A stretch of 64,000 nucleotides of DNA from Acidobacteriota bacterium (GTDB lineage Bacteria; Acidobacteriota; Vicinamibacteria; Vicinamibacterales; 2-12-FULL-66-21), in the NCBI GenBank assembly GCA_046731735.1, contig JBKPLP010000155.1, positions 14,199 through 78,198 of the forward strand, in the 5' to 3' direction. Below the pieces are notes generated by a model. It did not search any database. It was given only the letters and a program-made list of their open reading frames with translations, and had not been told where the DNA came from. Shown here in pieces: positions 9,225 to 45,184 of this stretch. A program made the translations under genes and the position numbers. How positions within the stretch are numbered: position 1 is the stretch's first letter; each line of letters opens with the position of its first letter.

Positions 9225-10661
9225 GTGACTGACTCCATGCTCATCACCGATCACCTGCGCAACGGGCGAAGCGAGGCGCCGGAGACCGTCCGGCACCCCG
9301 TGCGCCAGAGCGAACCACGCGTGCTCATCGCGGACGATCAATCGGACGTCCTCGAAGCGCTGCGGCTGCTGCTCAAGGCGGAAGGCTTTCAGCTCGAAAC
9401 CGCCTCGTCGCCGGCCGGCGTGCTGGCCGCGATTGAGGCGCGCGAATTCGACGTGGCGCTGATCGACCTGAACTACGCGCGCGACACGACGTCGGGCGAA
9501 GAAGGACTCAACCTGCTCTCCCGGATCCAGGGAATCGATCCCACCCTGCCGGTTGTCGTGATGACCGCGTGGGGCAGCGTCGAAGTCGCCGTCGAGGCGA
9601 TGCGGCGCGGCGCGCGCGATTTCGTGCAGAAGCCGTGGGACAACGCCCGGCTCCTCGCGATCATTCGCACGCAGATCGAACTGAGCCAGGCGCTCCGCAA
9701 AGGCCAGCGGCTCGAGGCCGAGAACTCGTTGCTTCGCGGCGAGGGGATGCCGAAGCTGATCGCGGAATCGGCCGCGATGCAGAACGTGCTGCAGGTCGTC
9801 TCGCGCGTCGGGCCGTCGGACGCGAACGTGCTGATCCTCGGCGAAAACGGTACCGGCAAGGGCGTCGTCTCGCGGGCGCTGCACGCGGTTTCGAGCCGGG
9901 CCTCGCGGCCGATGGTGGTGGTCAACTCGGGTGGCGTCTCCGAAGGCGTCTTCGAGAGTGAGCTGTTCGGGCACGTCCGCGGCGCGTTCACCGACGCGAA
10001 AACCGACCGCGTCGGCCGGTTCGAGCTCGCCGACCAGGGCACGCTGTTCCTCGACGAAATCGCCAACGTTCCCATGAGCCAGCAGCAGAAGCTGCTGCGG
10101 GTCATCGAGACCGGTGAGTTCGAGCGCCTCGGATCGTCACGGACCCGGCGCGTCGACGTTCGCATCATTTCGGCGACGAATGCCAACCTGGCGGACGAAG
10201 TCGCGGCGGGACGGTTCCGTCAGGATCTCCTCTTCCGGCTGAATACGATCGAAATCCGTGTGCCGTCGCTTCGTGACCGCCGCGAGGATCTGCCGCTGCT
10301 CGCGCAGCACTTCCTCCGGCAGCACGCGCAGCGCTATCGCAAGCGCCTCACTGGCTTCGAGAGCGGAGCGATGCAGATCCTGCTCGAGCACCCCTGGCCC
10401 GGCAACGTACGCGAGCTGGATCACGCGATCGAGCGCGCGGTGCTGATGGCGCCGGGGCCGCTCATAAAGGCAACCGATCTCGGGCTGCGCAGCGGAAGCG
10501 CAGCGGCCGGCCGGCTGGAAGACATGAGCCTCGAGGACGTCGAGTGCTTCCTCATCAAGAAGGCGATGACCCGCTTCGATGGCAATGTCAGCCAGGCGGC
10601 AAAGGCGTTGGGCTTGAGCCGTAGCGCTTTGTACCGACGGCTGCAGCGCTACGGTTTATGA
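9225..10661 (+). CDS. sigma-54-dependent Fis-family response regulator (NtrC type)
   Basis: REC domain, AAA+ domain (GENGTGKG, GAFTDA, ESELFGH) and a C-terminal Fis HTH. Start is either GTG 9225 or ATG 9237. Confidence 0.9.
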   Translation: MTDSMLITDHLRNGRSEAPETVRHPVRQSEPRVLIADDQSDVLEALRLLLKAEGFQLETASSPAGVLAAIEAREFDVALIDLNYARDTTSGEEGLNLLSRIQGIDPTLPVVVMTAWGSVEVAVEAMRRGARDFVQKPWDNARLLAIIRTQIELSQALRKGQRLEAENSLLRGEGMPKLIAESAAMQNVLQVVSRVGPSDANVLILGENGTGKGVVSRALHAVSSRASRPMVVVNSGGVSEGVFESELFGHVRGAFTDAKTDRVGRFELADQGTLFLDEIANVPMSQQQKLLRVIETGEFERLGSSRTRRVDVRIISATNANLADEVAAGRFRQDLLFRLNTIEIRVPSLRDRREDLPLLAQHFLRQHAQRYRKRLTGFESGAMQILLEHPWPGNVRELDHAIERAVLMAPGPLIKATDLGLRSGSAAAGRLEDMSLEDVECFLIKKAMTRFDGNVSQAAKALGLSRSALYRRLQRYGL

Positions 10662-17696: not shown

Positions 17697-18545
17697 ATGA
17701 AGAAGACAGGCGGCACGGCGACGGTCGAACGACGCGCGCAACAGCGCGTCTCGGATGAGAAGTGGCGCACCGCGCTGACCAGCATCCAGCCGAACAAAAT
17801 TCTCCTGCGCGGCTACCCGCTCGACGAGATCATGGGGCGGCTGTCGTTCGGCGAAGCGATCTACCTGCTGCTCATCGGGGAGTGCCCGACCCCTGCCATC
17901 GGACGCCTCATGGAAGCGCTGCTCGTGTCGTTCATCGATCACGGGGCGACGCCTCCCTCCACGCTCGCGGCGCGCAACACCGCGACCACCGGCGCCCCGC
18001 TCCGCGCGTGCGTGGCGGCAGGCGTCCTCGGATTCGGCCGCTATCACGGCGGCGACATCGAGAGCTGCATGCAGTTTCTCGATGCCGGACTCGAGCTCGT
18101 GCGAAAAGGCAAGTCGTATAGCGATGCCGCGACAGAGATCGTCGAGCGATGGGAACCGACCGGCGAAGCCCTGCCTGGCTTCGGCCACCGCTTTCACACG
18201 CGCGATCCACGCGCGACGCGGCTGTTCCAGATGGCGCTCGAGCTCGAAGTCGAAGGCACGCACATTCAGATGATTCGTGCGGTCGAGATGTTCCTCCACA
18301 CGCGGCATGGGCAGGATGAGGCGCCGATGCCGATCAACATCGACGGCGCCATCGCGGCGGTGTGCAGCGACCTCGGCATGCCGCCGGCCATCGCCAATGC
18401 GCTCTTCATCATCTCGCGTGTGCCGGGAATCGCCGCGCAGGCGCAGGAGGAGCGGGATCGCCAGCATCCGATGCGCCAAATCGACCCGAAGGACCATATC
18501 TACGACGGCCCTTCGGAGCGCCGGCTGCCGGAGCGGAGAAAGTAA
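17697..18545 (+). CDS. citryl-CoA lyase / citrate-synthase-like family protein
   Basis: Short citrate-synthase fold: LRGYPLDEIMG, HGGD..., PGFGHRFH, NIDGA. Confidence 0.7.
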   Translation: MKKTGGTATVERRAQQRVSDEKWRTALTSIQPNKILLRGYPLDEIMGRLSFGEAIYLLLIGECPTPAIGRLMEALLVSFIDHGATPPSTLAARNTATTGAPLRACVAAGVLGFGRYHGGDIESCMQFLDAGLELVRKGKSYSDAATEIVERWEPTGEALPGFGHRFHTRDPRATRLFQMALELEVEGTHIQMIRAVEMFLHTRHGQDEAPMPINIDGAIAAVCSDLGMPPAIANALFIISRVPGIAAQAQEERDRQHPMRQIDPKDHIYDGPSERRLPERRK

Positions 18546-18578: not shown

Positions 18579-20024
18579 TTAATACTTCGACTGAGACGGG
18601 TCGATCCGGTCGATCCACTCCAGGATGCCACCCTTGAGATTGTGGATCCGCGTGAAGCCGCGCTCCTGAAGCAGCGCCACCGCCTTCGCGCTGCGCGCAC
18701 CCACTTTGCAGTGCACGACGAGATCGCGCGTCGCGTCGAGCTCCGCCGTGCGCCGGGGCAGCTCACCAAGGGGGATCAGCCTCGATCCCGCGATCCGGCA
18801 GATCTGAAACTCGTTCGGCTCCCGCACGTCGAGGAGGTCGAAGTCCTCGCCGCGGTCGATCTTCGCCTTCAAGTCTTCGACGGTGATCTCGGGAACGCCG
18901 CTGCCCGCCGGCTGCGCGTGTGCAGCGGGCACAATGCCGCAGAACTGATCGTAGTCGATGAGCGCCTTGATCGTCGGGTGATCGCCGCAGATCGGGCATT
19001 CGGGATCGCGTCGCAGCCGCAGCTCGCGGAACCGCATCTGCAGCGCGTCGTAGAGCAGCAGCCGTCCGACCAAGGGTTGGCCGGCGCCGAGGACCAACTT
19101 GATCGCTTCGGTGGCCTGAATGACGCCGATGACGCCCGGCAGCACGCCGAGCACCCCGCCTTCCGCGCAGCTCGGGACGAGACCCGGAGGAGGTGGTTCA
19201 GGATAGAGGCAGCGATAGCAGGGCCCGCCTTTCACCGCGAAGACGGACGCCTGGCCATCGAACCGGAAGATGCTGCCGTACGCGTTCGGCTTGCCCAGGA
19301 GCACGCACGCGTCGTTCACGAGGTAGCGCGTCTGGAAGTTGTCGGTTCCGTCGAGGATGACGTCGTAGTCCTTCAGCACGTCGAGCGCGTTCTTGGAGGT
19401 CAGCGTGACTTCGTGAAGGACGACGTTGACGCCCGCGTTCATCGCCATGATGCGCTCGCGCGCCGCCACGAGCTTCCGCCGTCCGACATCCGGGGTGCCG
19501 TAGATGATCTGCCGCTGCAAATTGCTCGAGTCGACGACATCGAAGTCCACAATCCCCAACGTGCCGATGCCGGCTGCCGCGAGATACATCGCCGCTGGCG
19601 CACCGAGCCCGCCGGCGCCTATGCACAGCACACTGGCCGCCTTCAGCTTGCGCTGTCCCTCGACGCCGACCTCCGGCATGATCAAATGACGGCTGTAGCG
19701 CTGCACTTCTTCACGCGTCAGTTCCGGAGCGGCGCGAACCGCCGCCCCCGACCCGCCCGCGACCGACGGCACGATGCTGATGGTGTCACCGGCCTTCAAG
19801 GTCGTCTTCTCGCGATCGAGGTGACGGATGTCTTCGTCGTTGACGTAGATGTTGACGAAGCTTCGCAGCCGTCCGTCCTCGGTGTAGAGGTGTCGGCGAA
19901 GATCGCCGTACTGGCCGATGAGCCCCTGCAGGGCATCGCCGACGGTTGTGCCTTCAACTTCGACGACGTCGCGCTTGCCGACAAACGGGCGGAGCGGCGT
20001 CGGGATCAGAATCCGATGGGCCAT
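18579..20024 (-). CDS. fusion protein: CysO/MoaD/ThiS-like sulfur-carrier domain (ends ...SVAGG) + MoeB/MoeZ-type E1 adenylyltransferase + C-terminal rhodanese
   Basis: Residues 1-91 resemble CysO-type carriers (FVNIYVNDEDIR...IVPSVAGG). These are followed by a RYSRHL / GAGGLG Rossmann fold, CxxC...CxxC, and a rhodanese domain with active-site CKVGARS. Confidence 0.85.
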   Translation of the reverse strand: MAHRILIPTPLRPFVGKRDVVEVEGTTVGDALQGLIGQYGDLRRHLYTEDGRLRSFVNIYVNDEDIRHLDREKTTLKAGDTISIVPSVAGGSGAAVRAAPELTREEVQRYSRHLIMPEVGVEGQRKLKAASVLCIGAGGLGAPAAMYLAAAGIGTLGIVDFDVVDSSNLQRQIIYGTPDVGRRKLVAARERIMAMNAGVNVVLHEVTLTSKNALDVLKDYDVILDGTDNFQTRYLVNDACVLLGKPNAYGSIFRFDGQASVFAVKGGPCYRCLYPEPPPPGLVPSCAEGGVLGVLPGVIGVIQATEAIKLVLGAGQPLVGRLLLYDALQMRFRELRLRRDPECPICGDHPTIKALIDYDQFCGIVPAAHAQPAGSGVPEITVEDLKAKIDRGEDFDLLDVREPNEFQICRIAGSRLIPLGELPRRTAELDATRDLVVHCKVGARSAKAVALLQERGFTRIHNLKGGILEWIDRIDPSQSKY

Positions 20025-20079
20025 GTCATGTCCTCAGTCGAGACGAAGAATCGCAGGCGATCGCCGGCGGGCACGGCGA

Positions 20080-21345
20080 TCAATGCCCCGCCGGCAGCAC
20101 CACCGCCGCTTCTCCCGACGAGCGAAGATACGCTTCGAAGTCCTGGAGCGATCGGCTGATTTGCACGGGCGGCGCGACGCGCGATCCGATGGTTTCCGCC
20201 GCTGTCTTGTACCCGTTGCCGGTAATGCAGATGACCACCGATTCGTCGGGCGCGATGGCGCCCGATTGCACCAGCTGAATGGTGCCGGCGAGCGTCGCGC
20301 CGCCGGCCGGCTCGGTGAAAATGCCTTCGGTTTCGGCGAGCAGCTCCATCGCCTGGAGAATCTGCTCGTCGGTCGACGCGACGCCGGTGCCACCGGTCGA
20401 CGTCACGGTCCGCACGACCTGGAACCCGTCCGCCGGGTTGCCGATCGCGATCGACTTCGCGATCGTCGACGGCTTGACCGGTTCGGGGTACTCGAGACCC
20501 TGCTCCAGCGCACGCACGACCGGCGCACAGCCCGCCGCCTGTGCCGCGTGGATCTTCGGCAGATCACCGGTGACCAGACCCACTTCGCGAAGCTCGCGGA
20601 ACGCTCTGAAGATTCGCGGCAGCAACGTACCACCGGCGACCGGAGACACCAGATGTTTCGGGAAACGCCACCCGAGCTGTTCGACGACTTCGAATCCGAG
20701 GGTTTTGGCCCCTTCCGCGTAGTAGCTGCGCAGATTGATGTTCGCGAAGCCCCATCCGAGCTTGTCGGCAACCTGCGTGCACAGCCGGTTGACGTCGTCG
20801 TAGTTGCCGCGAACCCCGATCACATGCGGCCGGAACACCGCCGACCCGAGCACCTTCCCGAGCTCGAGATCGTCCGGGATGAAGACGTAGCATTCCAGTC
20901 CGAGCCGCGCCGCGTGCGCCGACACGCTGTTCGCAAGATTTCCGGTGGACGCGCAGCCGAACACCGTGAAACCCAGTTCGACCGCGCGGGTTGCCGCGAT
21001 CGAGACCACTCGATCCTTGTACGAGAGCGTCGGATGATTGACCGAATCGTCCTTGATGAAGAGCTCCTGCAGGCCGAGCGTCCTGGCCAGGCGATCGGCC
21101 CGGACGAGCGGCGTACACCCCGAATGGAATCCGGTGCGCGGCTCACCGGTGATCGGCAGCAGCTCACGGAACCTCCACACGTTTCGAGGTCGCCGCTCCA
21201 CCACGTCGCGCGTGAGCGCGCCGCGTACGCCGTCGTAGTCGTAGACCACCTCGAGCGGACCCAGGCATTGATCGCAGACCCACAGCGCCTCGGCAGGAAA
21301 CTTCGCCCCGCACAGATGGCACTGGAGTCCCGTCATGAACGTCAT
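20080..21345 (-). CDS. threonine-synthase-family PLP enzyme (second ThrC paralog; candidate O-phosphohomoserine sulfhydrylase, MetM-like)
   Basis: N-terminal CxxC...CxxC ribbon and a PLP lysine context (PTLSYKDR). Sits between thrB and the sulfur-carrier/E1 gene. Confidence 0.8.
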   Translation of the reverse strand: MTFMTGLQCHLCGAKFPAEALWVCDQCLGPLEVVYDYDGVRGALTRDVVERRPRNVWRFRELLPITGEPRTGFHSGCTPLVRADRLARTLGLQELFIKDDSVNHPTLSYKDRVVSIAATRAVELGFTVFGCASTGNLANSVSAHAARLGLECYVFIPDDLELGKVLGSAVFRPHVIGVRGNYDDVNRLCTQVADKLGWGFANINLRSYYAEGAKTLGFEVVEQLGWRFPKHLVSPVAGGTLLPRIFRAFRELREVGLVTGDLPKIHAAQAAGCAPVVRALEQGLEYPEPVKPSTIAKSIAIGNPADGFQVVRTVTSTGGTGVASTDEQILQAMELLAETEGIFTEPAGGATLAGTIQLVQSGAIAPDESVVICITGNGYKTAAETIGSRVAPPVQISRSLQDFEAYLRSSGEAAVVLPAGH

Positions 21346-22289
21346 GCTTTACCTTTCCCTTTACCTTTCCGTCGCGCGACTGAGCTCGAGACCGCCCCGA
21401 GTCTGGTCGAAGCGCGATGCACCGGCACCGCCCTGATCGTGCAGGCGACCCGCTCCTGCCGGTACGCCTGTTTCAAAATCCGTTCTGCCGCGGCCGTCGG
21501 TCCGTTCGTGAACGCGGCGATGGATGGGCCGGCTCCGCTCAGGCAGAACCCGATCACATCAGGATGCCGCACCGAGAGCAGCCGGCGCAACCCCGGCACC
21601 AGCCGCTCCCGATACGGCTGGTGAACGCGATCGCGGAGCGCCTCCCGAAAATCGTCCGCATCAGCCGACTGGAGCGCGCCGAGGAGGAGTGCCAGCCGCT
21701 GCAGGTTGAACACCGCGTCGCCGACCGGCAGCCGACTCGGGATCGCCCGCCGCGAAAGCGGGGTCGGCAGCTCCAGTGCTGGTGTCGCGACGACGATGCG
21801 CCATGCGCGCGGCCACGGCCACCGGGCAACCCGGATCGTTCCGTCTGCCATGGCGCAGCAGCTCGTCACACCGCCAAACAAGGAAGGCGCGACGTTGTCC
21901 GGGTGCCCTTCGATCTTGGACGCTGCCGAGAGAATTTCGGCCCCGGGCCGCCTGCCGTCCACGAGTTCACGCAGCCGCAGGCCGGCCACGGTGGCGGCGG
22001 CACTGCTTCCCAGCCCGGAGCGCAGTGGAATCTCGCTATGCACTTCGACCTCGAGCGACGGAGCCCGCTTGACACGGCCGAGCGCGCGAAATCCGTCCGC
22101 GATCCGATTCGGCCCCCCGATGGGTCCGTCCACGAAATGCCACGTCAGCCTGCCGCGGCCGTCGTGCTCGATATTCCTGACGCGTAGCCGCAGATACAAC
22201 CCCACTGCAAGGCCCAGCGTGTCGAACCCGGGGCCGAGATTCGCGATGGATCCGGGCACGACAATCTCGCGTGGCCTCACGCGCTGCAT
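21342..22289 (-). CDS. thrB: homoserine kinase
   Basis: Trimmed to MQRVRPREIVVPGSIANLGPGFDTLG. GHMP kinase motif PLRSGLGSSAA. The start overlaps the sulfite reductase stop, and the stop overlaps the next ATG. Confidence 0.85.
   Translation of the reverse strand: MQRVRPREIVVPGSIANLGPGFDTLGLAVGLYLRLRVRNIEHDGRGRLTWHFVDGPIGGPNRIADGFRALGRVKRAPSLEVEVHSEIPLRSGLGSSAAATVAGLRLRELVDGRRPGAEILSAASKIEGHPDNVAPSLFGGVTSCCAMADGTIRVARWPWPRAWRIVVATPALELPTPLSRRAIPSRLPVGDAVFNLQRLALLLGALQSADADDFREALRDRVHQPYRERLVPGLRRLLSVRHPDVIGFCLSGAGPSIAAFTNGPTAAAERILKQAYRQERVACTIRAVPVHRASTRLGAVSSSVARRKGKGKGKA
21347..21370. repeat. CTTTACCTTTCC x2 (TACCTTT family)
   Basis: Lies inside the last 10 codons of the thrB ORF, where it is translated as KGKGKGKA, directly upstream of the next gene's ATG. 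Confidence 0.8.
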
Positions 22290-24127
22290 TCGCCGTCCAT
22301 GACCTCCGGATTGAACGCGTGATCTTCGCCTGGATCGATGAAGTCCTGCGGCCGGACGTCGTCGGCCGTCAGCTGCTCGAGATCCGCCACCGCGGCTCGC
22401 GCCCGCGCGGTGTCGACCCGGTGGAAGAACGTGCCGGCACTCTCGCCGTGTGCCCGTTCCACTTCGTACAGTTTCAATAAACGCTCGACCGCTTCCGGAA
22501 TGCGACGCGCGGGAATCTTCGCGGTCAGGCGGCCGAACTGTGCGCCGTCCTGTCCCTGTCCACCGCCAAGCATCAGAAAGTACTGCGGTACCGCGCGGTC
22601 GCCGAGCTTTCTCACGCTTCCCTGGAATCCGATGCTCGCCACGTGATGCTGCCCGCAGCCGTTCGGGCAGCCACTGATCTTGATCCGCGCGTCCGACGCA
22701 ATCCGCAGCAGTGCGGGCGATTGCTGCTCCAGGTTCTCTTCGATCAGTTTCGCGAGGCCTCGCGACTGCGTGACCGCGAGACGGCACGACTCGGCGCCGG
22801 GACAGCTGGTGACGTCGGTGATCGTGCCCGCGCCGGCGCGCGCGAGACCCGCGGCGGCAAGCCGTCGATACAGCCCAGGCACCTGCCCGCTGCGTACCCA
22901 CCGCAGCAGCAGGTTCTGATCCACTGTGGTGCGCACCAGGCCGTCCGCGTACGCTTTCGACAGCGCGGCGATCGCGCGCATCTGACCCGACGTGATGTCG
23001 CCGAGCTCCAGCGAAACGGTCACCTGGGAGTACTCGCTCTGTTTCTGAGGCCGCAGATTCGTCCGCAGCCACTCGCTGCGCTCACGGCCAGGGCCGCCAT
23101 CTCCTGTCTCCCGCAGCGGGACAATCCCCGGCCCCTTCACCGCGGTCGCACCGACGAGCGCGGCAATGTCGGCGATCGCCGGCGGCTCCGCGCGCTCCGA
23201 CTCAGGCGCCTGTTCAACCGGCGGATTCTCCGGATCGAAGGGCAGGCGTGCGGCGGCGGATGCGCGAAGATCCTCGAGTTCGCGCTGAAACTCGGCGTGC
23301 CACGCCTCCCAACCCATCTTCTTCACGAGGAATTTCAGCCGGTTCCGCTGCTTATGTTCGTAATCGCCATGCCGTTGGAAGACGCGCAGCACCGCTTCCG
23401 CCACCATCAGGATCTCGGATGCCGGCAGGAACTCGTACAGCGATGCGCCCGAACGGCACATGATCGACGTGCCGCCGGCGACCTGCACCCTGAAACCGCG
23501 AGCGCCGGAGCCATCCGGCGCCAGCATCGCGCGATACCCCAGGTCGTTGATTGAGGTTGCCGTATGGTCCTCGGACGCGCATCCCTCGAACGCGATCTTG
23601 AACTTGCGCGGAAGCGCGGAACTGAGCGGATGGCGCAGCAGATAGCGCGTCATCGCCTCCGCATACGGCGTGACGTCGAAGATCTCGTCGCGCGCGACTC
23701 CGGCGTGCGGGCACGCGGTGATATTGCGCACGGAGTTGCCGCACGCTTCACGCGTCGTCAATCCGCTGTCCGCGAGACGCCGCAGGGCGGGCTCTGCGTC
23801 GTGCAACTTCACGAAGTGAAACTGCACGTTCTGCCTGGTCGAAATGTGGCCGAACCCGCGTGAGTAGCGGTCGGCGACGTCGGCGAGCGCCTCCAGCTGC
23901 GCCGCATCCAGAATGCCTTGCGGGATCTTCACGCGCAGCATCTGCGCGTCCGCGTCCTGCCGTTGCCCGTACGTGCCTCGCAGCAAACGGAACCGACGCC
24001 ACTCCTCGGGTGATATGTCGCCGCGCTCGAACTGATCGAGTGTGCGCACGAACTCGTCGATGTCGTTGGTATCGGCAAAGGACAGCCGGGTGCGGCCGTA
24101 AGTGCGAGGATCGTCCAAGACTGCCAT
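22277..24127 (-). CDS. ferredoxin-dependent sulfite reductase (NirA/Sir family, siroheme-[4Fe-4S])
   Basis: Trimmed to MAVLDDPRTYGRT. Two nitrite/sulfite reductase repeats and cluster cysteines (TSCPGAESC, SGCPNGC). Adjacent to siroheme synthesis genes. Confidence 0.85.
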   Translation of the reverse strand: MAVLDDPRTYGRTRLSFADTNDIDEFVRTLDQFERGDISPEEWRRFRLLRGTYGQRQDADAQMLRVKIPQGILDAAQLEALADVADRYSRGFGHISTRQNVQFHFVKLHDAEPALRRLADSGLTTREACGNSVRNITACPHAGVARDEIFDVTPYAEAMTRYLLRHPLSSALPRKFKIAFEGCASEDHTATSINDLGYRAMLAPDGSGARGFRVQVAGGTSIMCRSGASLYEFLPASEILMVAEAVLRVFQRHGDYEHKQRNRLKFLVKKMGWEAWHAEFQRELEDLRASAAARLPFDPENPPVEQAPESERAEPPAIADIAALVGATAVKGPGIVPLRETGDGGPGRERSEWLRTNLRPQKQSEYSQVTVSLELGDITSGQMRAIAALSKAYADGLVRTTVDQNLLLRWVRSGQVPGLYRRLAAAGLARAGAGTITDVTSCPGAESCRLAVTQSRGLAKLIEENLEQQSPALLRIASDARIKISGCPNGCGQHHVASIGFQGSVRKLGDRAVPQYFLMLGGGQGQDGAQFGRLTAKIPARRIPEAVERLLKLYEVERAHGESAGTFFHRVDTARARAAVADLEQLTADDVRPQDFIDPGEDHAFNPEVMDGECSA

Positions 24128-24132
24128 ATGAG

Positions 24133-24909
24133 TTATATCCCGCTCAGACTTCGGCGCTCGGCTTCGGCGTGCCGCACCGCGTCCTGCGTTGAAAGAAGGC
24201 CAGCCAGCGCCGCGACCGCCCCGACGACGATGACGCCCGGCAGGCCGCTGTCCTCGACGGCGTCCCGCACGGCGAGTAAATCGAGCGTGCCGTGCCACTC
24301 CTCCGCCCCGGGGTGCGAGGCGCCGAACAGCACGGCCGCCGGAGTCTGCGCAGCCCAGCCCGATGCGCGCAGCTGGTCGACGATCGCCGCACGATTCGCG
24401 ATGCCCATGAGTACGACGATCGTCGCGCTGCCCGGCGCCAGCGACCGCAGCACCGGCCCATACGCCGACTCGGCATGGCCCGAGAGGACGATGAACGCAG
24501 ATGCCAGACCGCGATGCGTGACGGGAATCCCCGCAAGCAGCGGCGCCGCGATGGCGCTGCTGATTCCCGGAACGACTTCACAGGGGATGCCTGCGGCAGC
24601 GAGGGCCAGCGCCTCTTCGCCGCCGCGGCCGAACACGAACGGGTCGCCGCACTTCAGGCGGACGACCTTGTGGCCGCGCCGCGCCTCGCGAACCATCAGC
24701 CGGTTGATCGCGTCCTGCCGGATCGCCGGGCGCCCCGCGCGCTTACCGACGAAGAAACGCCGCGCGCGCGCGGCATGGCGCAACGCGGCAGTATCCACGA
24801 GCGCATCGTAGAGCACCAGATCCGCTTCCTCGAGACGCCGCACGGCCTTGACGGTGAGCAGCTCCGGATCGCCCGGGCCGGCGCCGATGAGGGAGACAGA
24901 ACCAGTCAT
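24133..24909 (-). CDS. cobA: uroporphyrinogen-III C-methyltransferase
   Basis: 258 aa with LIGAGPGDPELLT and GDPFVFGRGGEE motifs. Confidence 0.9.
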   Translation of the reverse strand: MTGSVSLIGAGPGDPELLTVKAVRRLEEADLVLYDALVDTAALRHAARARRFFVGKRAGRPAIRQDAINRLMVREARRGHKVVRLKCGDPFVFGRGGEEALALAAAGIPCEVVPGISSAIAAPLLAGIPVTHRGLASAFIVLSGHAESAYGPVLRSLAPGSATIVVLMGIANRAAIVDQLRASGWAAQTPAAVLFGASHPGAEEWHGTLDLLAVRDAVEDSGLPGVIVVGAVAALAGLLSTQDAVRHAEAERRSLSGI

Positions 24910-25697
24910 TTTTTACTCTGCGCTGGGGCCCCACCCCCAGCGCCTGCCAGCACTCGCTCATCGCTCGTGCCGCTGTTTCGATCGACATCCCGCTTAGTCA
25001 ACATCGGGGCCCCACCCTCAACGCCTGCCAGCACTCGCTCATCGCTCGTGCCGCTGGTTCGATCGACATCCCGCTTAGTCAACATCGGGGCCCCACCCTC
25101 AACGCCTGCCAGCACTCGCTCATCGCTCGTGCCGCTGGTTCGATCGACATCCCGCTTAGTCGACATCGATCTCGATGTGTAGAGCGCATTCAGGGCTTCG
25201 AGCAGCTCCGGGCGGCGTGCCTCCATCGGCACTTCCCGCTCGCGCCATGAGCGGCGCAGCTCGTGTGCGCGCTCGCTCCAACTCTCGAGATCACTCGGGA
25301 GCAGGGCATCCAGCGCTTCGCGAAGCAGTCCCGCGAGCGCGGGCGCCGCTCCGTCGGTCGAGATCCCCAGCGTCACCCCGCCCCGACGGACGACGCCGCC
25401 GAGATACACGGTGGCGTTCGCGGGATCGTCGACGGCGTTCACGAAAACCTGCCGGCGCTCCGCTGCCTCCGCCACACGGCGATTGACCTCGGGGGGCGCG
25501 GCCGCAACAACGAACCAGGCCTCGTCGACATCCGACGGCTCGAAACCCCGGCGCTCGATTCGTACGCCGGCGGCCTCGACCTCTTGGCACACGTCGGGCG
25601 CGACGACCGTCACGTCAGCGCCAGCGGCCTTCAGTGCGGCCAGCTTCGACGCGGCGACAGGACCGGCGCCGACGACGAGCACCCGGCGGCGGTGCAA
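24906..25697 (-). CDS. sirC: precorrin-2 dehydrogenase / sirohydrochlorin ferrochelatase (SirC/CysG-N type) with repeat-derived C-terminal tail
   Basis: VLVVGAGPVAASKL Rossmann fold and a VNAVDDP motif. TTG 25697 or GTG 25682 start. The last ~85 aa are encoded by the 81-bp tandem repeat. Confidence 0.75.
   Translation of the reverse strand: MHRRRVLVVGAGPVAASKLAALKAAGADVTVVAPDVCQEVEAAGVRIERRGFEPSDVDEAWFVVAAAPPEVNRRVAEAAERRQVFVNAVDDPANATVYLGGVVRRGGVTLGISTDGAAPALAGLLREALDALLPSDLESWSERAHELRRSWREREVPMEARRPELLEALNALYTSRSMSTKRDVDRTSGTSDERVLAGVEGGAPMLTKRDVDRTSGTSDERVLAGVEGGAPMLTKRDVDRNSGTSDERVLAGAGGGAPAQSKK
24925..25167. repeat. 81-bp tandem repeat x3
   Basis: Copies start at 24925, 25006 and 25087 and differ by only a few substitutions. 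The unit is ~GGGGCCCCACCCTCAACGCCTGCCAGCACTCGCTCATCGCTCGTGCCGCTGGTTCGATCGACATCCCGCTTAGTCAACATC. Confidence 0.95.
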
Positions 25698-25743
25698 CTT
25701 CAGGAACGCTGGGAACAGGGCGATGACGGCAACTCCTTTCCAT

Positions 25744-25786
25744 GAAAAACAAAAAGCCCGGGAGGTGTCTGGCCTCCCGGGCTTCG
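25744..25786 (-). terminator. intrinsic terminator / attenuator hairpin upstream of sirC
   Basis: Minus strand reads AAGCCCGGGAGG-ccagaca-CCTCCCGGGCTT followed by TTTGTTTTT. The 12-bp GC stem lies 20 nt after the poly-Cys leader stop. Confidence 0.8.
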
Positions 25787-25809
25787 TTATGTCTCGTGCG
25801 TTGAATGCT

Positions 25810-25908
25810 TTAGAACATCACGCCTGGACCGAAGGCAGGGAAGCCCCGAATGCTGCACATACAGCAGCAGCAGCAACAATTACAGGCGCAGGGGTTCCCG
25901 TAGAGCAT
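25810..25908 (-). CDS. candidate polycysteine leader peptide (32 aa)
   Basis: ATG CTC TAC GGG AAC CCC TGC GCC TGT AAT TGT TGC TGC TGC TGC TGT ATG TGC AGC ATT CGG GGC TTC CCT GCC TTC GGT CCA GGC GTG ATG TTC TAA = MLYGNPCACNCCCCCCMCSIRGFPAFGPGVMF. Confidence 0.6.
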   Translation of the reverse strand: MLYGNPCACNCCCCCCMCSIRGFPAFGPGVMF

Positions 25909-25915
25909 TTTGCTG

Positions 25916-25945
25916 TTTATACCCCACCTCAGGCCGGAATCGCAA
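25916..25945 (-). promoter_or_regulatory. candidate promoter TTGCGA-N18-TATAAA for the poly-Cys leader (near-leaderless)
   Basis: Minus strand reads TTGCGAttccggcctgaggtggggTATAAAcagcaaaATG. The -35 element lies in the last codons of thrC. Confidence 0.35.
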
Positions 25946-27254
25946 GATCGAGGTGCCTCCGCACCTGGTCATAATCGTTGGGCAGCTCGATGGGGCGGTT
26001 CGCCCGCCGCGACACGATCCCCTCCAGGGTGCCCGCGTGGTAGCCCGCCTTGAAATCCGTGAATTTCAGGCCGCTCGCGGTCGAAATCACCACCACCCGG
26101 TCGCTTGCCTTGATCTCGCCTCGTCCTGCGAGCTTGATCAGTGCGGCCAGCGCAACGCCGGTGTGCGGACACGCGAACATGCCGGTCTTGTCGGCATGAG
26201 CGACCGCGTCCGCAAGCTCCTGCTCGTTGGCCTGTTCGACTGTCCCGCCGGAGCGCTTCAGGGCGGCAATCGCCTTCTGCACGGAAACCGGGTTCCCGAT
26301 TTGAATCGCCGACGCGAGCGTCGGACGCGCGGTGACCGGCTTGAATTGCCAGCGATTCAGCGACGCCAGGTAAAGCGGGTTGGCCGCTTCGGCCTGCGCC
26401 GCGATCAGTCGCGGCACGCGCGCAACCAGGCCAAGGTCCCGCATCATCTCAAAGCCGGCGGCGAACGCGCTGATGTTTCCCAGGTTGCCCGCCGGGACGA
26501 TGACGACGTCCGGCACCTGCCAGTCGAACTGCTGGGCAATCTCGATGGCGACCGTCTTCTGCCCTTCGAGCCGCAGACTGTTCATCGAGTTCGCCAGGTA
26601 CAGCCCTTCGTCGTCGGCCAGCCGCTGGATGATCGCCATGCACCCGTCAAAATCCGTGTCGAGTGCGAAGACGACCGCTCCGTTGGCCAGGGGCTGGACC
26701 AGTTGCGCGACGGTCACTTTCCCCCGCGGCAGCACGACAATGGCGGGAATCTCCGCGGCGGCGGCGTACGCGGCAAGCGATGCCGACGTATCGCCCGTGG
26801 ACGCGCAGCCGACTGCGCGGATCTGCTTCCCCTGGGCCATCATCTGGCGGACCATGGACACGAGCACCGTCATCCCGAGGTCCTTGAACGATCCCGTGTG
26901 CGAGTTGCCACACAACTTGACCCAGACGTCCTTCAAGCCGATCGATCGGCCGAACGCGTCGGCGAGAAACAGATTCGTGCCCCCCTCATCCATCGAGACT
27001 ACGTTCTCATCTTCGATTTCCGGGCAGACCCACTCCTTCTTGCCCCAGACGCTCGATCCGTACGGCCATGCGGTGCGCTTGTACCGTTCATCGAAGAGAC
27101 GCATCCACGCCGCCGCGCTCCGGTCGCGGAGCGCGTCCAGGTCGTGAACGACCTCGAGCAGACCGCCGCAGGTCGGACAGCGGTAGATGACCGTGTCCAG
27201 CGAATACGACCCGGGACAGCCGGCGACGCAGCGGAACTCGGCGCGATAGCTCAC
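25929..27254 (-). CDS. thrC: threonine synthase
   Basis: 441 aa. N-terminal Zn-ribbon-like CxxC...CxxC and a PLP lysine context (HTGSFKDLG). Confidence 0.9.
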
Positions 27255-28579
27255 GCCGCGCTCCCCGGGGTGGCCGATGACAGCACGGGAAGCACGACTG
27301 GCGGCTCACCGTGAAAATCGCACTGGGACATTTCCTGGATCGCCCGATCGATCGCGGACGCCGGGGCCGGATCGAGGCTGACCACGAAGGGCCGGCGGCC
27401 GGCGGGAAACCCGGGCTCCTGAAGAATTGCGTCGATGTTGATGTCGTGGCGCGCGAAGACGGTCGCGAGCGCTGCGATGATTCCCGGTCGGTCCGCGACG
27501 GTGAAGCGCACGTAGAACGCGCTGGTGAAATCCGGCGACACGTCTGCCCGGTTCGCAGCCGCACGGGAGCTGAAGGGCACGGCTTCGCGCGCGATCGCGA
27601 GCAGGTCCGACATGACAGCCACGGCCGTCGGCTCTCCGCCCGCGCCAAGGCCCCCAAACGTCGTTTCGCCACCATACTGGCCGCGCAGGGTCACCAGGTT
27701 CTCGCTGCCGCGCACGCGCGCGAGCGGCGAATCGAGCGGCACGAGCGCCGGCCCGACCGCCGCGGTCAACACACGGGGATCCGCTGTCCGTTCGGCCCAC
27801 GCGACCTGCCGGATGGTGCAACCCATCTGCTGCGCGTAGACGAAGTCGACCGCGTCGATGACGTCGATGCGCCGCGACTGGATTGCACCCGCGGGCACGT
27901 GCGTCCGCAGCGCGATGTGAGCCAGAATCGCGAGCTTCGCCTGGGCGTCGAACCCTTCGATGTCCTGAGACGGATCGGCTTCGGCAAGCCCCAGCGCCTG
28001 GGCCTCCGCGAGCGCTTCCCAGAATGGCACGCGCTGCCGCTCCATGCGGCTCAGGATGTAGTTGCACGTGCCGTTGAGAATCCCGGCGACGCGGGTCAGC
28101 TTGTCCCCGGCGAGCCCGTGCTCAATCGCGCGGATCACCGGGACGCCGCCAGCGACCGCAGCCTCGAAGCGCACGTGCCGTTTCGATCGTGCCGCCTCTT
28201 CCAGTAACTCAGGACCGGCGTGAGCTATCACCTGTTTGTTGGCGGTGACGACCGACTTCCCTGCTCTCAGCGCCCGTCGGATCCACTCCTCGGCCGGCAT
28301 CCGTCCACCGATCAGCTCGACGAGGACGTCCACGTCGTCGTTCAGCACGTCGTCGATCCTGTCGGTCCAGCGGATGGAGTCGTCGAGCCAGTCGACGCGC
28401 TTGCGTTCGATACCGCGATTCAGAATCGCCACGAGCTGAAGTTCGGGCGGCGCGAGATCCTGCAGCAGCCGGGCCACGGATCGACCGACGGTACCGAACC
28501 CGGCGATCGCCACGCGGGTCCTCTGCGTAACCGGCTTCGTCGCGGCGGACGGGACTGTGGCTGCGGCGGGCGCGCTCAT
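27251..28579 (-). CDS. hom: homoserine dehydrogenase (with C-terminal ACT domain)
   Basis: GFGTVG NAD-binding motif, catalytic domain and ACT-like tail. 4-bp overlaps with both neighbours. Confidence 0.9.
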
Positions 28580-29964
28580 GCCTGCACCATAGGCGTCTGC
28601 GCGGCGTCGCGGCGGCGCGCACCTCCGAAGAACCAGTCGTGCAGCCGCGACACGGCAGGTATCGCCTGAGTCGCGTCGACGACGAACGACAGCGTCCGCT
28701 TACCGTCCGGTTGGGCAACGAGATGAACCTGCAAATCGCGCAGGGCGCCGGCCACATCCGCTGCCAGATGCCGATTCGCACTCAACCCTTCGCCCACCAC
28801 CGTCACCGTCGCAAGATCGTCGGTCACCCGGACGTCGGCAAATTTTCCAAGCGATCGGCGTAGTAGATCAAGCGTCGGCGCTGCCTGAACCGTGAACACG
28901 AGCCGGTTTCCGCACAGATCAGCGAGGACGGCCTCGACGTCCGCGAGTTCGAGCTCACCAAACACCCGCGATACGAACTCGTCGACGTCGGCGCGTTCGT
29001 GGGCGAGGACTTCGAACAGGATCGCGCCGTCGCGGCAGGCGAGACCGGCCACCGGCCGCGCGTCCTCCGCGGTTCGCGCGGCGCTGACGACGGTTCCGGA
29101 CACGTGCGGCCGTTGCGAGTTGCGGACGACAACGGGAATCGCGCAATCGACGGCTGGCGCGATCGTACCGGGGTGCAGCACCTTCGCGCCAAACGACGCG
29201 AGGTCGTGTGCTTCACCGTACGAAAGATGCGGTACGAGACGCGCATGGGGTACCAGGCGCGGGTCGGCGGTCATGATGCCGTCGACGTCGGTCCAGATCT
29301 GAATCTCGTCCGCGCCGAGGCAGGCACCGAACACCGCGGCGGAGCAGTCCGACCCGCCGCGCCCGAGCGTCGTCGTCACGCCCTTCGCATCGGATCCGAT
29401 GAAGCCGCCGAGGACCACGATATCGCCGCGATCGAGCTCGGGGCGCACGAGACGGACACAGGCTTCGCGTGTCGCGATGAGATCGGGAGCGGCGCCGCCG
29501 TGGTGGCTGTTCGTGCGCAGGACGTCCCGGGCATCGAGCCACGTGGCCGGCACGCCGCCATCGCGCAGCACTGCCGCCAGCAGCCGGCTGCTCCAGAGCT
29601 CTCCCGCTGCCGCCACCTCATCGACCGAGCGCGCGGACAGGCGCCCCGGCGCCGCTTCGAGGGTCGCGGCGACCTGCGCGGCAATCGCATAGAACTCGTG
29701 CTGGAGTGCCACCCGTGCCGTGCGTTCGCGAATCATCTCGGCCGCCGCGAGGTGCCGGCGCAACAGCAGGTCGAGGTTGCGCGGCGGCGGATTCCCCGGA
29801 ATCGTCGCGCCCGCAGCCGCCACGTTCAGCAGCGCGTCGGTCACACCGGCGAGCGCCGACACCACCACTAGGCGCGACCGTCGTTCGGCCGCGATGATCC
29901 CGGCCACCCGCCGAATCGATTCCACCTCGCCGACTGAGGTGCCGCCGAATTTCAGGACTACCAC
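28576..29964 (-). CDS. ask: aspartate kinase
   Basis: GTG start giving MVVLKFGGTSV, with RBS GAGGAG upstream. Amino-acid kinase domain plus ACT domains. Confidence 0.9.
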   Translation of the reverse strand: MVVLKFGGTSVGEVESIRRVAGIIAAERRSRLVVVSALAGVTDALLNVAAAGATIPGNPPPRNLDLLLRRHLAAAEMIRERTARVALQHEFYAIAAQVAATLEAAPGRLSARSVDEVAAAGELWSSRLLAAVLRDGGVPATWLDARDVLRTNSHHGGAAPDLIATREACVRLVRPELDRGDIVVLGGFIGSDAKGVTTTLGRGGSDCSAAVFGACLGADEIQIWTDVDGIMTADPRLVPHARLVPHLSYGEAHDLASFGAKVLHPGTIAPAVDCAIPVVVRNSQRPHVSGTVVSAARTAEDARPVAGLACRDGAILFEVLAHERADVDEFVSRVFGELELADVEAVLADLCGNRLVFTVQAAPTLDLLRRSLGKFADVRVTDDLATVTVVGEGLSANRHLAADVAGALRDLQVHLVAQPDGKRTLSFVVDATQAIPAVSRLHDWFFGGARRRDAAQTPMVQA

Positions 29965-30025
29965 ACGATCTCTCCTCGTCTTACGCCTGACGCCGCGGCG
30001 ACCCTAAAAGGGTCGCCCTACACTC

Positions 30026-38062: not shown

Positions 38063-38427
38063 TTCCGGGCGAGCTGTTCCTGCGCGACGAGCCCGTCGAA
38101 CTGAATGCCGGACGCGAGCCGATCCGCATCCGCGTCGACAACGCCGGCGATCGGCCGATCCAGATCGGATCGCACACGCACTTTTTCGAAGTCAACAAAC
38201 ATCTTCGGTTCGATCGTGGTCGCGCGTACGGCTGTCATCTGAACATCCCGGCCGGGACCGCGCTTCGGTTCGAACCCGGCGAAGGACGGGAGATCGATCT
38301 CGTGCCGTTTGGCGGGACGCGCCGCGTGTTCGGCATGAGCGGACTGGTCAATGGCTCGCTCGACGATCAGCGCGATCAGGCAGTTAGCCGTGCGAGCGAG
38401 CGCGGCTTCACCGGGGATCGACGGTGA
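38059..38427 (+). CDS. ureB: urease subunit beta
   Basis: MIPGELF...[16 protein letters not shown]. Confidence 0.93.
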
Positions 38428-40130
38428 AGATTCCGCGGCGGACGTACGTCGATCTTTACGGCCCCACCACCGGAGATCGCGTTCGCCTCGGGGACACGTC
38501 TCTCGTGCTCGAGATCGACCGCGACCATGCGCGGTATGGTGACGAGGTCGTGTTCGGTGGCGGCAAGGTCATCCGCGATGGACAAGGGCAATCCCAGGCA
38601 ACCCGCGCGGCGGGCGCGCCGGACCTCGTGATCACGAACGCCATCGTCGTGGATCACTGGGGCGTCGTAAAGGCCGACGTGGGCGTCCGCGACGGCCGCA
38701 TCAGTGCGATCGGAAAGGCCGGCAATCCCGACATTCAGGACGGGGTCACGCCCGGTCTCGAGATCGGTCCGTCGACTGAAATCCTCGCGGGCGAGCATCG
38801 AATCCTGACCGCGGGCGGAATCGATTCCCACATCCACTTCATCAGCCCGCAGCAGGCGTGGGAAGCGCTCTACAGCGGCATCACCACCATGATCGGCGGC
38901 GGCACCGGGCCGGCGGAAGGCACGCGGGCGACGACCTGCACGCCCGGTGAGTGGAACATTCGACGGATGCTGGAAGCAGCCGAAGGACTGCCGCTGAATT
39001 TCGGGTTCCTGGGAAAAGGCAACGCGTCCCTGCCGGACCCGCTGGTCGAGCAGATCGTCGCCGGAGCGATTGGCCTGAAGCTGCACGAAGATTGGGGCAC
39101 GACGCCGCAGGCAATCGACACCGCGCTCGGCGTCGCGGACGAGTACGACGTGCAGGTCGCGATTCATACCGACACGCTGAACGAATCAGGATTCGTCGAG
39201 GACACGCTCGCCGCCTTCAAGGGCCGGACGATTCACACCTACCACAGCGAAGGTGCCGGCGGCGGGCACGCCCCCGACATCATGAAGGTCTGCGGTCAGC
39301 CAAACGTGCTGCCGTCGAGCACGAACCCGACGATGCCGTACACGGTGAACACGCTCGACGAGCACCTGGACATGCTGATGGTCTGCCATCACCTCAACCC
39401 GCAGGTACCCGAAGACGTCGCGTTCGCCGAGTCGCGAATACGGCCGGAGACGATGGCCGCGGAGGACGTCCTGCACGATCTCGGCGCGATCAGCATGATG
39501 TCATCCGACTCGCAGGCGATGGGCCGCGTCGGCGAAGTCATCACACGCACGTGGCAGACGGCGCACGTGATGAAAGAGACGCGAGGCGCGCTCCGCGGCG
39601 ATCGGGCGGAGAACGACAACCTGCGCATACGCCGTTACGTCGCGAAGTACACGATCAATCCCGCACGCACGCACGGGATCGCCGATTACGTCGGGTCGAT
39701 CGAGGTCGGCAAGTGGGCTGACCTCGTGTTATGGTCGCCGGCCTTTTTCGGCGTCAAACCCGACCTCATCGTCAAGGGCGGGATGATCGTCGCGGCACTG
39801 ATGGGAGACCCCAACGCGTCCATCCCGACGCCTGAGCCGGTGCGGTATCGGCCGATGTTCGGCGCGCTGGGCAAAGCGCCCGACGGGCTCGCGGCGACGT
39901 TCGTCTCGCGCGCCGCGCTCGACTCGAGGTCGCTGCCGGCATCGCTCCGGCGGACCCTGCTGCCGGTGCGGAACACGCGGACGCTCGGCAAACGGGATAT
40001 GGCCATGAACGATGCGCTGCCGTCGATCGAGATCGATGCGGAGCGCTATACCGTCACCATCGATGGAGAGAGAATAGAGCCGAAGGCCGCGGCGCGGCTG
40101 CCGCTGGCACAGCGGTATTTTTTGTTCTGA
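38424..40130 (+). CDS. ureC: urease subunit alpha
   Basis: 568 aa with [16 protein letters not shown] and MVCHHL motifs. Confidence 0.95.
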
Positions 40131-41443: not shown

Positions 41444-41501
41444 GATTCGCGATTCGCGGATTTCTTGATTAGGGATTCGCGATTAGGGATTAGGGATTCG
41501 G
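41444..41501. repeat. mixed heptamer array GATTCGC / GATTAGG x8
   Basis: Fills the ureF-ureG spacer up to 3 nt before the ureG ATG. Confidence 0.9.
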
Positions 41502-41504
41502 TTC

Positions 41505-42110
41505 ATGAGCGTCACCATAGGTGTAGGCGGCCCGGTCGGGTCTGGCAAGACGGCGCTGCTCGACAGCTTGTGCAAGCGGCTGCGGGATCGCTACAGTCTG
41601 GTGGTCATCACCAACGACATCTACACCCATGAGGATGCCGAATTCCTGATGCGCTCCGGCGCGCTGCCGATCGAGCGGATTCGCGGTGTGCAGACCGGCG
41701 GCTGCCCGCATACCGCCATCCGCGAAGACACCTCGATCAACCATGAGGCGCTCGACGCGATGCGGGCGCGGTTCCCGGACGCCGAGATCCTGTTTCTCGA
41801 ATCCGGCGGCGACAATCTCGCCGCGTCCTTCAGCCCCGAGCTCGTCGACGTCAGCATCTACGTCGTCGACGTGGCCGGCGGCGACAAAGTACCGCGCAAG
41901 GGTGGTCCGGGAGTGACGCGCAGCGATCTTCTGGTCATCAACAAGACCGATCTCGCGCCGCTGGTCGGGGCCGACCTCGGGGTGATGCAGCGCGACGCCG
42001 AGAAGATTCGCAACGGCAAGCCAATCGTGTTCACCAACCTGAAACGCGGCGACGGACTGGACGAGGTCATCGAGTGGATACGGCGTCAGGTGCTGTTCGA
42101 GAAGTCGTAG
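41505..42110 (+). CDS. ureG: urease accessory GTPase UreG
   Basis: P-loop GGPVGSGKT, and ESGGDNL and NKTDL motifs. Confidence 0.95.
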
Positions 42111-45112: not shown

Positions 45113-45184
45113 GGGCGCTTGGCTCAGCGGTAGAGCATCGCCTTCACACGGCGGGGGTCAGTGGTTCGAATCCACTAGCGCCCA
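45113..45184 (+). tRNA. tRNA-Val (anticodon CAC)
   Basis: Folded by hand into a cloverleaf: acceptor GGGCGCT/AGCGCCC, D arm GCTC-AGCGGTA-GAGC, anticodon arm TCGCC-TTCACAC-GGCGG, T arm AGTGG-TTCGAAT-CCACT. CCA is not encoded. Confidence 0.9.

Follow-up and report, generated by a model that had tools for sequence, protein, structure and literature searches.

A thiocarboxylate route to homocysteine has been described for Streptomyces albulus where, according to the reports cited here, the carrier MetO is matured by the JAMM metallopeptidase Mec, thiocarboxylated by MoeZ and used by the ThrC homologue MetM, an enzyme 'often misannotated' as threonine synthase, in the conversion of O-phosphohomoserine to homocysteine (10.1101/2024.10.14.618325; PMC12172450). 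The M. tuberculosis CysO/CysM/Mec+/MoeZ system, which serves cysteine synthesis, also has a carrier, CysO, that is a separate protein ending at GG. A homocysteine pathway of W. succinogenes consisting of HcyS, HcyD, HcyF and MetY was reportedly described by Krishnamoorthy and Begley in 2011, and Mec and HcyD each release carrier adducts in their own systems. The HcyS/HcyD/HcyF/MetY operon type is row 4e in the catalogue of Iyer et al. 2006 (PMC1779556). Carriers can also occur within larger proteins: in Deinococcus, the linear MoaD-MoaE fusion DR2607 is a substrate of the JAMM peptidase DR0402, whose gene is not linked to it (PMC8832034), and M. tuberculosis MoaX becomes active only once a protease encoded away from it has cut at GG|S (PMC4326299). 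Here we analyse a gene for a carrier-linker-E1-rhodanese polyprotein (positions 18579–20024, minus strand), E1 being the adenylyltransferase that activates the carrier, in a 64,000-nt stretch of contig JBKPLP010000155.1 (positions 14,199 to 78,198; assembly GCA_046731735.1) from a Vicinamibacterales acidobacterium, hereafter the window. We regard it as likely that this protein is a CysO/MetO-type carrier fused to its own MoeZ-type E1-rhodanese, that a JAMM peptidase, acting here in trans, frees the carrier, and that the product serves a thiocarboxylate route to homocysteine.

The gene is a single open reading frame (ORF) of 481 amino acids (aa) with three Pfam domains and, like all genes of its operon, lies on the minus strand. 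Residues 1–91 (19752–20024) constitute a ThiS/CysO/MoaD-type beta-grasp sulfur-carrier domain, residues 5–91 of which match PF02597 (ThiS) over the full profile (1–76/76; 55.4 bits, cut-off 22.5; E = 9e-15). The NCBIfam SAMP1 and MoaD_arch models (NF041918, 60.1 bits, cut-off 60; TIGR01687, 49.9 bits, cut-off 49.5) cover residues 11–91 and reach their final profile positions. In sequence comparisons with PDB entries, residues 5–91 aligned with residues 5–93 of the 93 of M. tuberculosis CysO (3dwg_C; E = 1e-13) and residues 1–91 with residues 1–90 of the 90 of 4n6e_B, the VAGG of residues 88–91 falling in both cases on the C-terminal GG. Because these alignments stop at the terminal GG, the carrier domain ends where free carriers end, and the reading of the first 91 codons as a CysO/MoaD-type carrier with an internal GG, made in the preliminary description of this locus, was borne out. 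At the junction, CCG TCG GTC GCG GGC GGG TCG GGG GCG GCG encodes P-S-V-A-G-G-S-G-A-A; past the GG the fusion frame stays open and the other two frames close at 31 and 38 nt, in agreement with the earlier observation of no nearby stop in frame and an alternative-frame stop some 30 nt downstream. The Gly90-Gly91 codons lie at 19752–19757, with cleavage predicted after Gly91 (GG|S), and are followed by the linker SGAAVRAAPE (residues 92–101; 19722–19751), which in an alignment of 85 sequences extends from the GG to the conserved start of the E1. With 390 residues (linker and E1-rhodanese) after Gly91, the primary product lacks the free C-terminal Gly carboxylate that, as had been pointed out, such a carrier needs, and this carboxylate could arise by proteolysis only.

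The remainder of the protein comprises a ThiF/MoeB/MoeZ-type adenylyltransferase (residues 110–344; 18993–19697; PF00899, 272 bits) and a rhodanese domain (residues 381–471; 18612–18884; PF00581, 67 bits) with the active-site loop H-C439-K-V-G-A-R, and NCBIfam MoeB/MoeZ models span residues 93–481. The E1 has a GAGGLG nucleotide-binding motif from G136, two CxxC pairs and Cys286; C269, C272, C286, C343 and C346, together with rhodanese C439, are invariant in the alignment of relatives. It scores above the cut-off of NF006444 MoeB (PRK08762; 470 bits, cut-off 449) and below those of the MoeZ equivalogs NF005902 (531 versus 647 bits) and NF005646 (554 versus 633 bits). By these scores, the E1-rhodanese is MoeZ-like, without the status of a curated equivalog.

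Judged by its recurrence across independent assemblies, the fusion is genuine and conserved. In the 120 best-scoring 90 %-identity clusters (84–100 % identical; NCBI, JGI, ENA and Logan assemblies), all three domains reside in a single gene in every case, 479–482 aa long apart from one of 540 aa; JGI annotates such proteins as 'sulfur-carrier protein adenylyltransferase/sulfurtransferase'. A second set, comprising the best 80 loci of 584 relatives in a scan with one genome per species, is mainly from Acidobacteriota, the nearest being Vicinamibacterales (88 %); others come from Gemmatimonadota, Ignavibacteria, Kryptoniota and Spirochaetota, and one is on a contig binned as Thermoplasmata. Sixty-four of these 80 loci have the continuous fusion, while carrier and E1 are split by at least one in-frame stop in 15 (79 scored). 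That the fusion reflects a sequencing or assembly artefact, or that translation from an internal start at V107 yields a separate E1, is exceedingly improbable, even though one in-frame stop codon is all that distinguishes split from fused relatives and a GTG codon is indeed present at V107. The 120 clusters and 64 species-level loci with a continuous gene refute an artefact, and with it the sequencing frameshift that had been considered for this locus. The GTG start that had also been suggested is not supported: position 107 is not conserved as a potential start, the aligned residue varying among V, I, Y, L, M and T, and initiation there would cut the conserved E1 N-terminus, with loss of the conserved L-T-x-x-E that precedes RYSRH.

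Among the seven contigs L012, L029, L030, L037, L039, L041 and L075, binned as Cyanobacteriota, Acetobacteraceae, Heliobacteriaceae, Clostridia or Thermoplasmata, the fusion proteins are 57–67 % identical to the acidobacterial one, which could reflect mis-binning or horizontal transfer. For the MoaD-MoeB(-rhodanese) fusion family, Acidobacteria-to-Archaea transfer is suggested in a 2024 survey (PMC11237513).

The survey of fused and split relatives called for in the preliminary description thus returned 64 continuous and 15 split loci, and on these counts fusion and fission toggle easily among these carrier/E1 genes, one codon sufficing in some cases to tell the two states apart. In the split loci (L006, L009, L027, L053, L054, L057, L061, L065, L066, L067, L068, L072, L073, L077 and L080), the in-frame stops fall in the junction region, about 270–400 nt into each match, and the E1 begins roughly where the linker ends. 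The carriers so separated bear tails past the GG that include RE, NGDR, GQEM, LKE, R, L, SLNYL, SSCCR, LTQDS and CCR; only L080, which is also among the few loci without a nearby JAMM gene, stops exactly at GG. P-[SA]-[VI]-A-G-G is invariant (78 of 78 sequences scored). Past it, the linker is hypervariable in length and sequence and has no conserved residues, the distance from GG to RYSRH in the 85-sequence alignment being 12–74 aa (median 19; 17 in the window). An invariant GG next to a freely varying linker is the pattern expected of an excised spacer, not of a structural connection.

The carrier domain was also searched against a representative set of 1.8 billion proteins (50 % identity); the output was mainly fragments and frameshifted calls, so that its use is qualitative (tails past GG are usual) and a fused-to-split ratio is not derivable from it. 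Exact GG ends were seen in only three of the 150 best carrier homologues in this set, the others carrying one residue, a short and often Cys-rich tail, or the E1. Since GG ends are this rare and, as detailed below, 71 of 80 loci have a JAMM gene upstream, the carrier subfamily appears to be normally capped past its GG and genomically tied to a JAMM peptidase, with fusion to the E1 as the extreme form of cap. Stand-alone carriers such as P0137, P0146, P0269, P0172, P0169, P0207, P0250 and P0142 commonly have Cys-rich tails (for example GG-CCCCCCL, GG-CCVMTCGT, GG-CCPPAACCCR and GG-ACACYCPCRMNA), and others a single R or C.

In contigs encoding the 91 % identical protein P0007, a gene for a 142-aa PF14464 (Prok-JAB) protein is placed between the ThrC-like gene and the fusion, with an overlap at either end; its translation carries the JAMM motif (the E in QECCG, then HSHPDAPARPSGED; Pfam 89 bits). 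A same-strand upstream JAB homologue was found by tblastn in 71 of the 80 loci (three of the 80 are too short for its presence to be judged), often overlapping the fusion start codon, and lies less than 400 nt from the fusion start in 67 loci and less than 150 nt in 54. These upstream Prok-JAB genes have an intact E...HSHx7Sx2D motif. Continuous fusions adjoin a JAB gene in 57 of 62 assessable loci (92 %). The question of how the fusion is matured thus seems largely answered by the linkage in relatives. JAMM/Mec-type peptidases had been named at the outset as the relevant processing enzymes, in keeping with this linkage, and self-processing, which had been raised as well, is not needed where a dedicated JAMM gene lies directly upstream. 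In two of the split carrier/E1 loci, L006 (9609–10002) and L009 (9599–9971), the JAB match is broken into two parts that lie in different frames, which would mean either that the gene is a frameshifted pseudogene or that these long-read assemblies contain an indel error. A further protein, P0162 (149 aa), has some 45 N-terminal residues resembling the JAB N-terminus (YPHECCRALLG) that run into the carrier domain, and looks like a separate internal, in-frame JAB deletion.

The window itself differs at this point. As the preliminary description had stated, no JAMM-like gene is apparent in it: none was found by tblastn across the 64 kb, and the best E reached by an unfiltered search of all window stop-to-stop frames of 30 codons or more with a profile of 69 JAB sequences from relatives was 1.5 (positive control, 4e-53). 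Alignment with L083, L088 and L004 identified instead a 55-nt deletion scar (20025–20079), which makes up the entire spacer from the ThrC-like stop codon to the ATG of the fusion. What is left of the 429-nt JAB gene, which in L083 occupies 9591–10019, is roughly 17 nt from its 5′ end and 45 nt from its 3′ end; some 370 nt are lost, and the fusion gene's GAGGA ribosome-binding site lies in the remaining 3′ piece. This scar also occurs in L085 and L087 (both ENA assemblies) and in L086 (JGI), whose proteins are 94–95 % identical to that of the window, and the JAB gene is kept in L088 (92 %) and L083/L084 (91 %). Because the scar is common to separate assemblies and the gene is kept in relatives at 91–92 % identity, the deletion is real and inherited. 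In another JAB-less clade (L001 and L002; 85–88 % identical), the spacers (5549–5755 in L001; 9940–10000 in L002/L081) are unrelated, about 60–200 nt long, and have no JAB remnant discernible by eye. A neighbour-joining tree of the fusion proteins places the JAB-bearing L083 and L088 between the window clade and the L001/L002 clade. This separation, together with the remnant-free spacers, indicates that the operonic JAB gene has been lost at least twice, the loss in L001/L002 being older and independent.

Loss of the peptidase gene could mean that the pathway is dead and its genes are decaying, given that the CysO and HcyS systems depend on JAMM for adduct release as well as maturation. The data make this highly improbable. 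Every ORF is intact, the deleted state persists in several independently sampled populations, and between the window and L085, that is, after the deletion (synonymous divergence dS 0.32), omega, the ratio of non-synonymous to synonymous rates, is 0.04 for the carrier, 0.11 for E1 plus rhodanese and 0.06 for the ThrC-like gene, values equally low as between JAB-containing relatives, by which decay is largely refuted. Purifying selection has therefore continued, and the system stayed functional without the operonic peptidase. Processing in these lineages is most likely by a JAMM encoded elsewhere in the genome, and trans-processing is plausible because DR0402 cuts the unlinked DR2607 and MoaX is cut by a non-adjacent protease.

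Alternatively, the precursor in the JAMM-deleted lineages might be matured by something other than a JAMM, such as another GG-specific protease or E1-assisted self-cleavage. The two or more losses of the operonic JAB within a clade that retained the fusion are compatible with this, as are the five continuous fusions lacking JAB within ±10 kb and the precedent of MoaX, whose GG|S-cutting protease has yet to be named (PMC4326299). It is nonetheless unlikely: 92 % of assessable fused loci keep JAB beside the fusion, the JAB-less junction GG-SGAAV is the same in kind as the GG-AGTAL and GG-VGAVV of JAB-bearing sisters, and the processing of linear carrier fusions by the product of an unlinked JAMM gene has a documented precedent (PMC8832034). 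The chance is rather slim, too, that the JAMM-deleted lineages (the window and L085–L087 and, independently, L001/L002) hold no JAMM acting on the fusion at all, so that an enzyme of a new kind, or the E1 itself, makes the cut, or the carrier works while tethered; were it so, the mechanism of maturation or activation would be new for ThiS/MoaD-family carriers. As regards self-cleavage, we know of no ThiS-family protein that cleaves itself.

The genes transcribed together with the fusion suggest what the carrier may serve. In order of transcription, aspartate kinase, homoserine dehydrogenase and a thrC (25929–30003, stop-to-stop bounds; Pfam, TIGR00260 219.6 bits and synteny with L083) are followed by sirohaem genes (24136–25817: a uroporphyrinogen methylase at about 24136–24909 and a NAD_binding_7/Sirohm_synth_M gene at 24906–25817, outer bounds; Pfam and synteny with L085/L083), a 616-aa sirohaem-type sulfite/nitrite reductase (22277–24127), homoserine kinase ThrB (21342–22289), the ThrC-like gene (20080–21345), the scar and the fusion, an order that by Pfam calls matches that in L081–L088. 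The reductase has two copies each of NIR_SIR and NIR_SIR_ferr; its NirA/CysI-family matches are below cut-offs, and the same gene occurs in L081–L088. ThrB (TIGR00191, 199.6 bits, cut-off 168; GHMP kinase domains) starts at an ATG at 22289 preceded by GGAGG and overlaps the ThrC-like gene. The latter encodes a 421-aa ThrC-family pyridoxal 5′-phosphate (PLP) enzyme with an N-terminal Cys4 zinc ribbon (PALP 215 bits; TIGR00260 250.7 bits), a candidate MetM-like homocysteine synthase. The two thrC paralogues (20080–21345 and 25929–27305) are 28 % identical and both exceed the TIGR00260 threonine-synthase cut-off; automatic annotation would label both threonine synthase.

Because a second thrC paralogue occurs together with ThrB and a sulfite reductase, the operon points to homocysteine synthesis, and the ThrC-like gene at 20080–21345 is probably a homocysteine synthase. 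Its gene content fits a thiocarboxylate route of the MetM/MetO/Mec/MoeZ type from O-phosphohomoserine to homocysteine. Neighbouring genes in relatives were compared by targeted tblastn and locus inspection, GC-rich DNA being full of spurious antisense ORFs. By tblastn, ThrC-like homologues (49–51 % identity) lie within about 4 kb of carrier/E1 genes in L080, L036, L039 and L051, in L080 (Gemmatimonadaceae) together with ThrB. More distant fusion relatives are mostly found behind a CysM-like cysteine synthase plus JAB (the CysM-like protein of L013 scores 335 bits on TIGR01138). None of the operon genes upstream of the window's fusion is of CysM type, the rest of the window not having been searched for CysM.

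We propose that a JAMM/Mec-type metallopeptidase, which in the window's lineage would act in trans from a gene outside the 64 kb, cuts after Gly91 and thereby frees the Gly-Gly carboxylate, which the released E1 would adenylate. The sulfur that turns the carboxylate into a thiocarboxylate would come from a Cys439 persulfide of the rhodanese or from sulfide made by the sulfite reductase of the operon, and the adjacent ThrC-like PLP enzyme would use this thiocarboxylate with ThrB-made O-phosphohomoserine to form homocysteine. The same JAMM would probably also release the carrier-amino acid adduct, for example carrier-homocysteine. Of this scheme, the architecture and its conservation, the linkage to JAMM in relatives, the deletion and the continuing purifying selection are observed, whereas the cut itself, the origin of the sulfur, homocysteine as product and a peptidase acting in trans are inferred. 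Several points weigh against it. The MetM-like role of the ThrC-like gene is assigned by context. The window holds no JAMM gene from which the proposed peptidase could come, and L001, L002, L011, L023 and L025 have no JAMM within ±10 kb. A scan of the window with Rfam at gathering thresholds found no S-adenosylmethionine (SAM) riboswitch such as that reported for S. albulus metM (PMC12172450), a riboswitch that is probably not a defining feature. Finally, an AlphaFold2 model of the full protein (38 sequences, 85–95 % identical; predicted local distance difference test score, pLDDT, 55; predicted template modelling score, pTM, 0.34) is too poor for linker accessibility to be judged.

The presence of a sulfide-making sulfite reductase in the operon also lends some weight to the idea that the fused beta-grasp domain is never cleaved and serves the E1 as a regulatory or docking module, with sulfur coming from free sulfide or another carrier. 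A distinct Ub-like domain on Campylobacter ThiF has been proposed to act in this way, and assays of MetM-like activity with Na2S have been described (PMC12172450). We consider such a module very unlikely: the domain aligns with functional carriers over their whole length, the Gly-Gly does not vary, in contrast to the residues between it and the E1, 15 relatives have a split gene pair with a free-standing carrier, a search of the window for a second carrier gene found none, and the linkage to JAB would be left without a role.

The proposal of a cleavable carrier serving homocysteine synthesis can be set against the systems outlined above. Compared with the S. albulus route as described, the window likewise has a ThrC-homologous PLP enzyme adjoining a ThiS/MoaD-type carrier, a MoeZ-type E1-rhodanese as activator and a substrate from homoserine kinase, and maturation by a JAMM, there Mec, is likewise proposed here. 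Unlike in S. albulus, the carrier is fused to the E1 and not encoded by a separate gene, the sulfite reductase, sirohaem genes and ThrB share the operon, the SAM riboswitch was not detected and, in the window's lineage, the JAMM gene has been deleted. The M. tuberculosis system is similar in its carrier, with which that of the window aligns end to end, and in its E1-rhodanese (531 bits on NF005902), and most fusion relatives show the order CysM-like, JAB, fusion; it differs in its free-standing CysO and in that the PLP partner in the window is a ThrC paralogue, not CysM, and the MoeZ cut-off (647 bits) is missed. The W. succinogenes HcyS system is said to share with the window an extension past the GG, removed there by a JAMM, a clustered sulfite reductase and homocysteine as product, and to differ in that the HcyS extension is a single residue, the E1 has no rhodanese and the PLP enzyme is an O-acetylhomoserine sulfhydrylase. 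Of the marks of the capped systems CysO/Mec, HcyS/HcyD, QbsE/QbsD and MetO/Mec, the extension past GG is present in the fusion, ranging in relatives from one residue to the whole E1, and the JAMM gene beside carrier/E1 is absent in the window and present in 71 of 80 loci. Like DR2607, MoaX and Haloferax SAMP1-MoaE, in which cleavage after GG is required for activity, the window's protein has a ThiS/MoaD domain with an internal GG upstream of a fused partner enzyme; unlike here, that partner is the sulfur acceptor MoaE, not an E1, and serves molybdopterin, not amino acid, synthesis.

Neither the fusion architecture nor JAMM cleavage of linear carrier fusions, which is established, is new. In the parts of the surveys drawn on here, a 2006 catalogue lists operons of JAB, E1-rhodanese and ThiS/MoaD with or without cysteine synthase or sulfite reductase, one acidobacterium included, and ThiS-ThiF fusions in epsilon-proteobacteria and Firmicutes (PMC1779556), Ubl-E1 fusions are recorded in Thaumarchaeota as 'shared with bacteria' (PMC2948915), and the 2024 survey reports MoaD-MoeB and MoaD-MoeB-rhodanese in Archaea, with acidobacterial proteins more than 55 % identical (PMC11237513). 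These catalogued fusions have the same order of carrier, E1 and optional rhodanese, and PMC11237513 evidently covers the window's family; unlike in our reading, they are filed under thiamine or molybdopterin synthesis. The same parts of the three surveys do not tie the fusion to an adjacent JAMM, to CysM- or ThrC-like partners, or to JAMM loss. In the literature searched, we found no earlier link of the fusion to an overlapping JAMM gene, no fusion with a ThrC-like partner in Acidobacteria, and no case of repeated JAMM deletion with a capped carrier retained.

Convergent with the fusion gene lies a gene (17697–18545, plus strand) for a 282-aa protein with only the C-terminal half of a citrate-synthase fold, kept at the same position in all close relatives L081–L088. 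Elsewhere in the window, the Rfam scan returned only a single tRNA gene (45113–45184, plus strand; 67 bits) and a 5_ureB_sRNA match (38570–38865, minus strand; 92.6 bits). The latter is in an apparent urease gene region, near a large ORF (38388–40130, plus strand) and a P-loop GTPase-like ORF with a GSGKT motif (41487–42110), and probably reflects ureB coding conservation and not an sRNA.

Thus, instead of an error or a new mechanism, the fusion represents a known sulfur-carrier system in the form of a widespread polyprotein, common in soil Acidobacteria and present also in some Gemmatimonadota, Ignavibacteria and other phyla, and a dedicated JAMM peptidase would account for its maturation. 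Its context points to a probable protein-thiocarboxylate route from O-phosphohomoserine to homocysteine in uncultured Vicinamibacterales, where annotation presents the key enzyme of the route as a second threonine synthase, a point that bears on genome-based prediction of methionine prototrophy. Repeated loss of the operonic peptidase under continued selection on the carrier amounts to a natural experiment, suggesting that a trans-acting enzyme can take over the processing, and the JAB-less lineages offer a clean setting in which to ask which carrier each JAMM serves.

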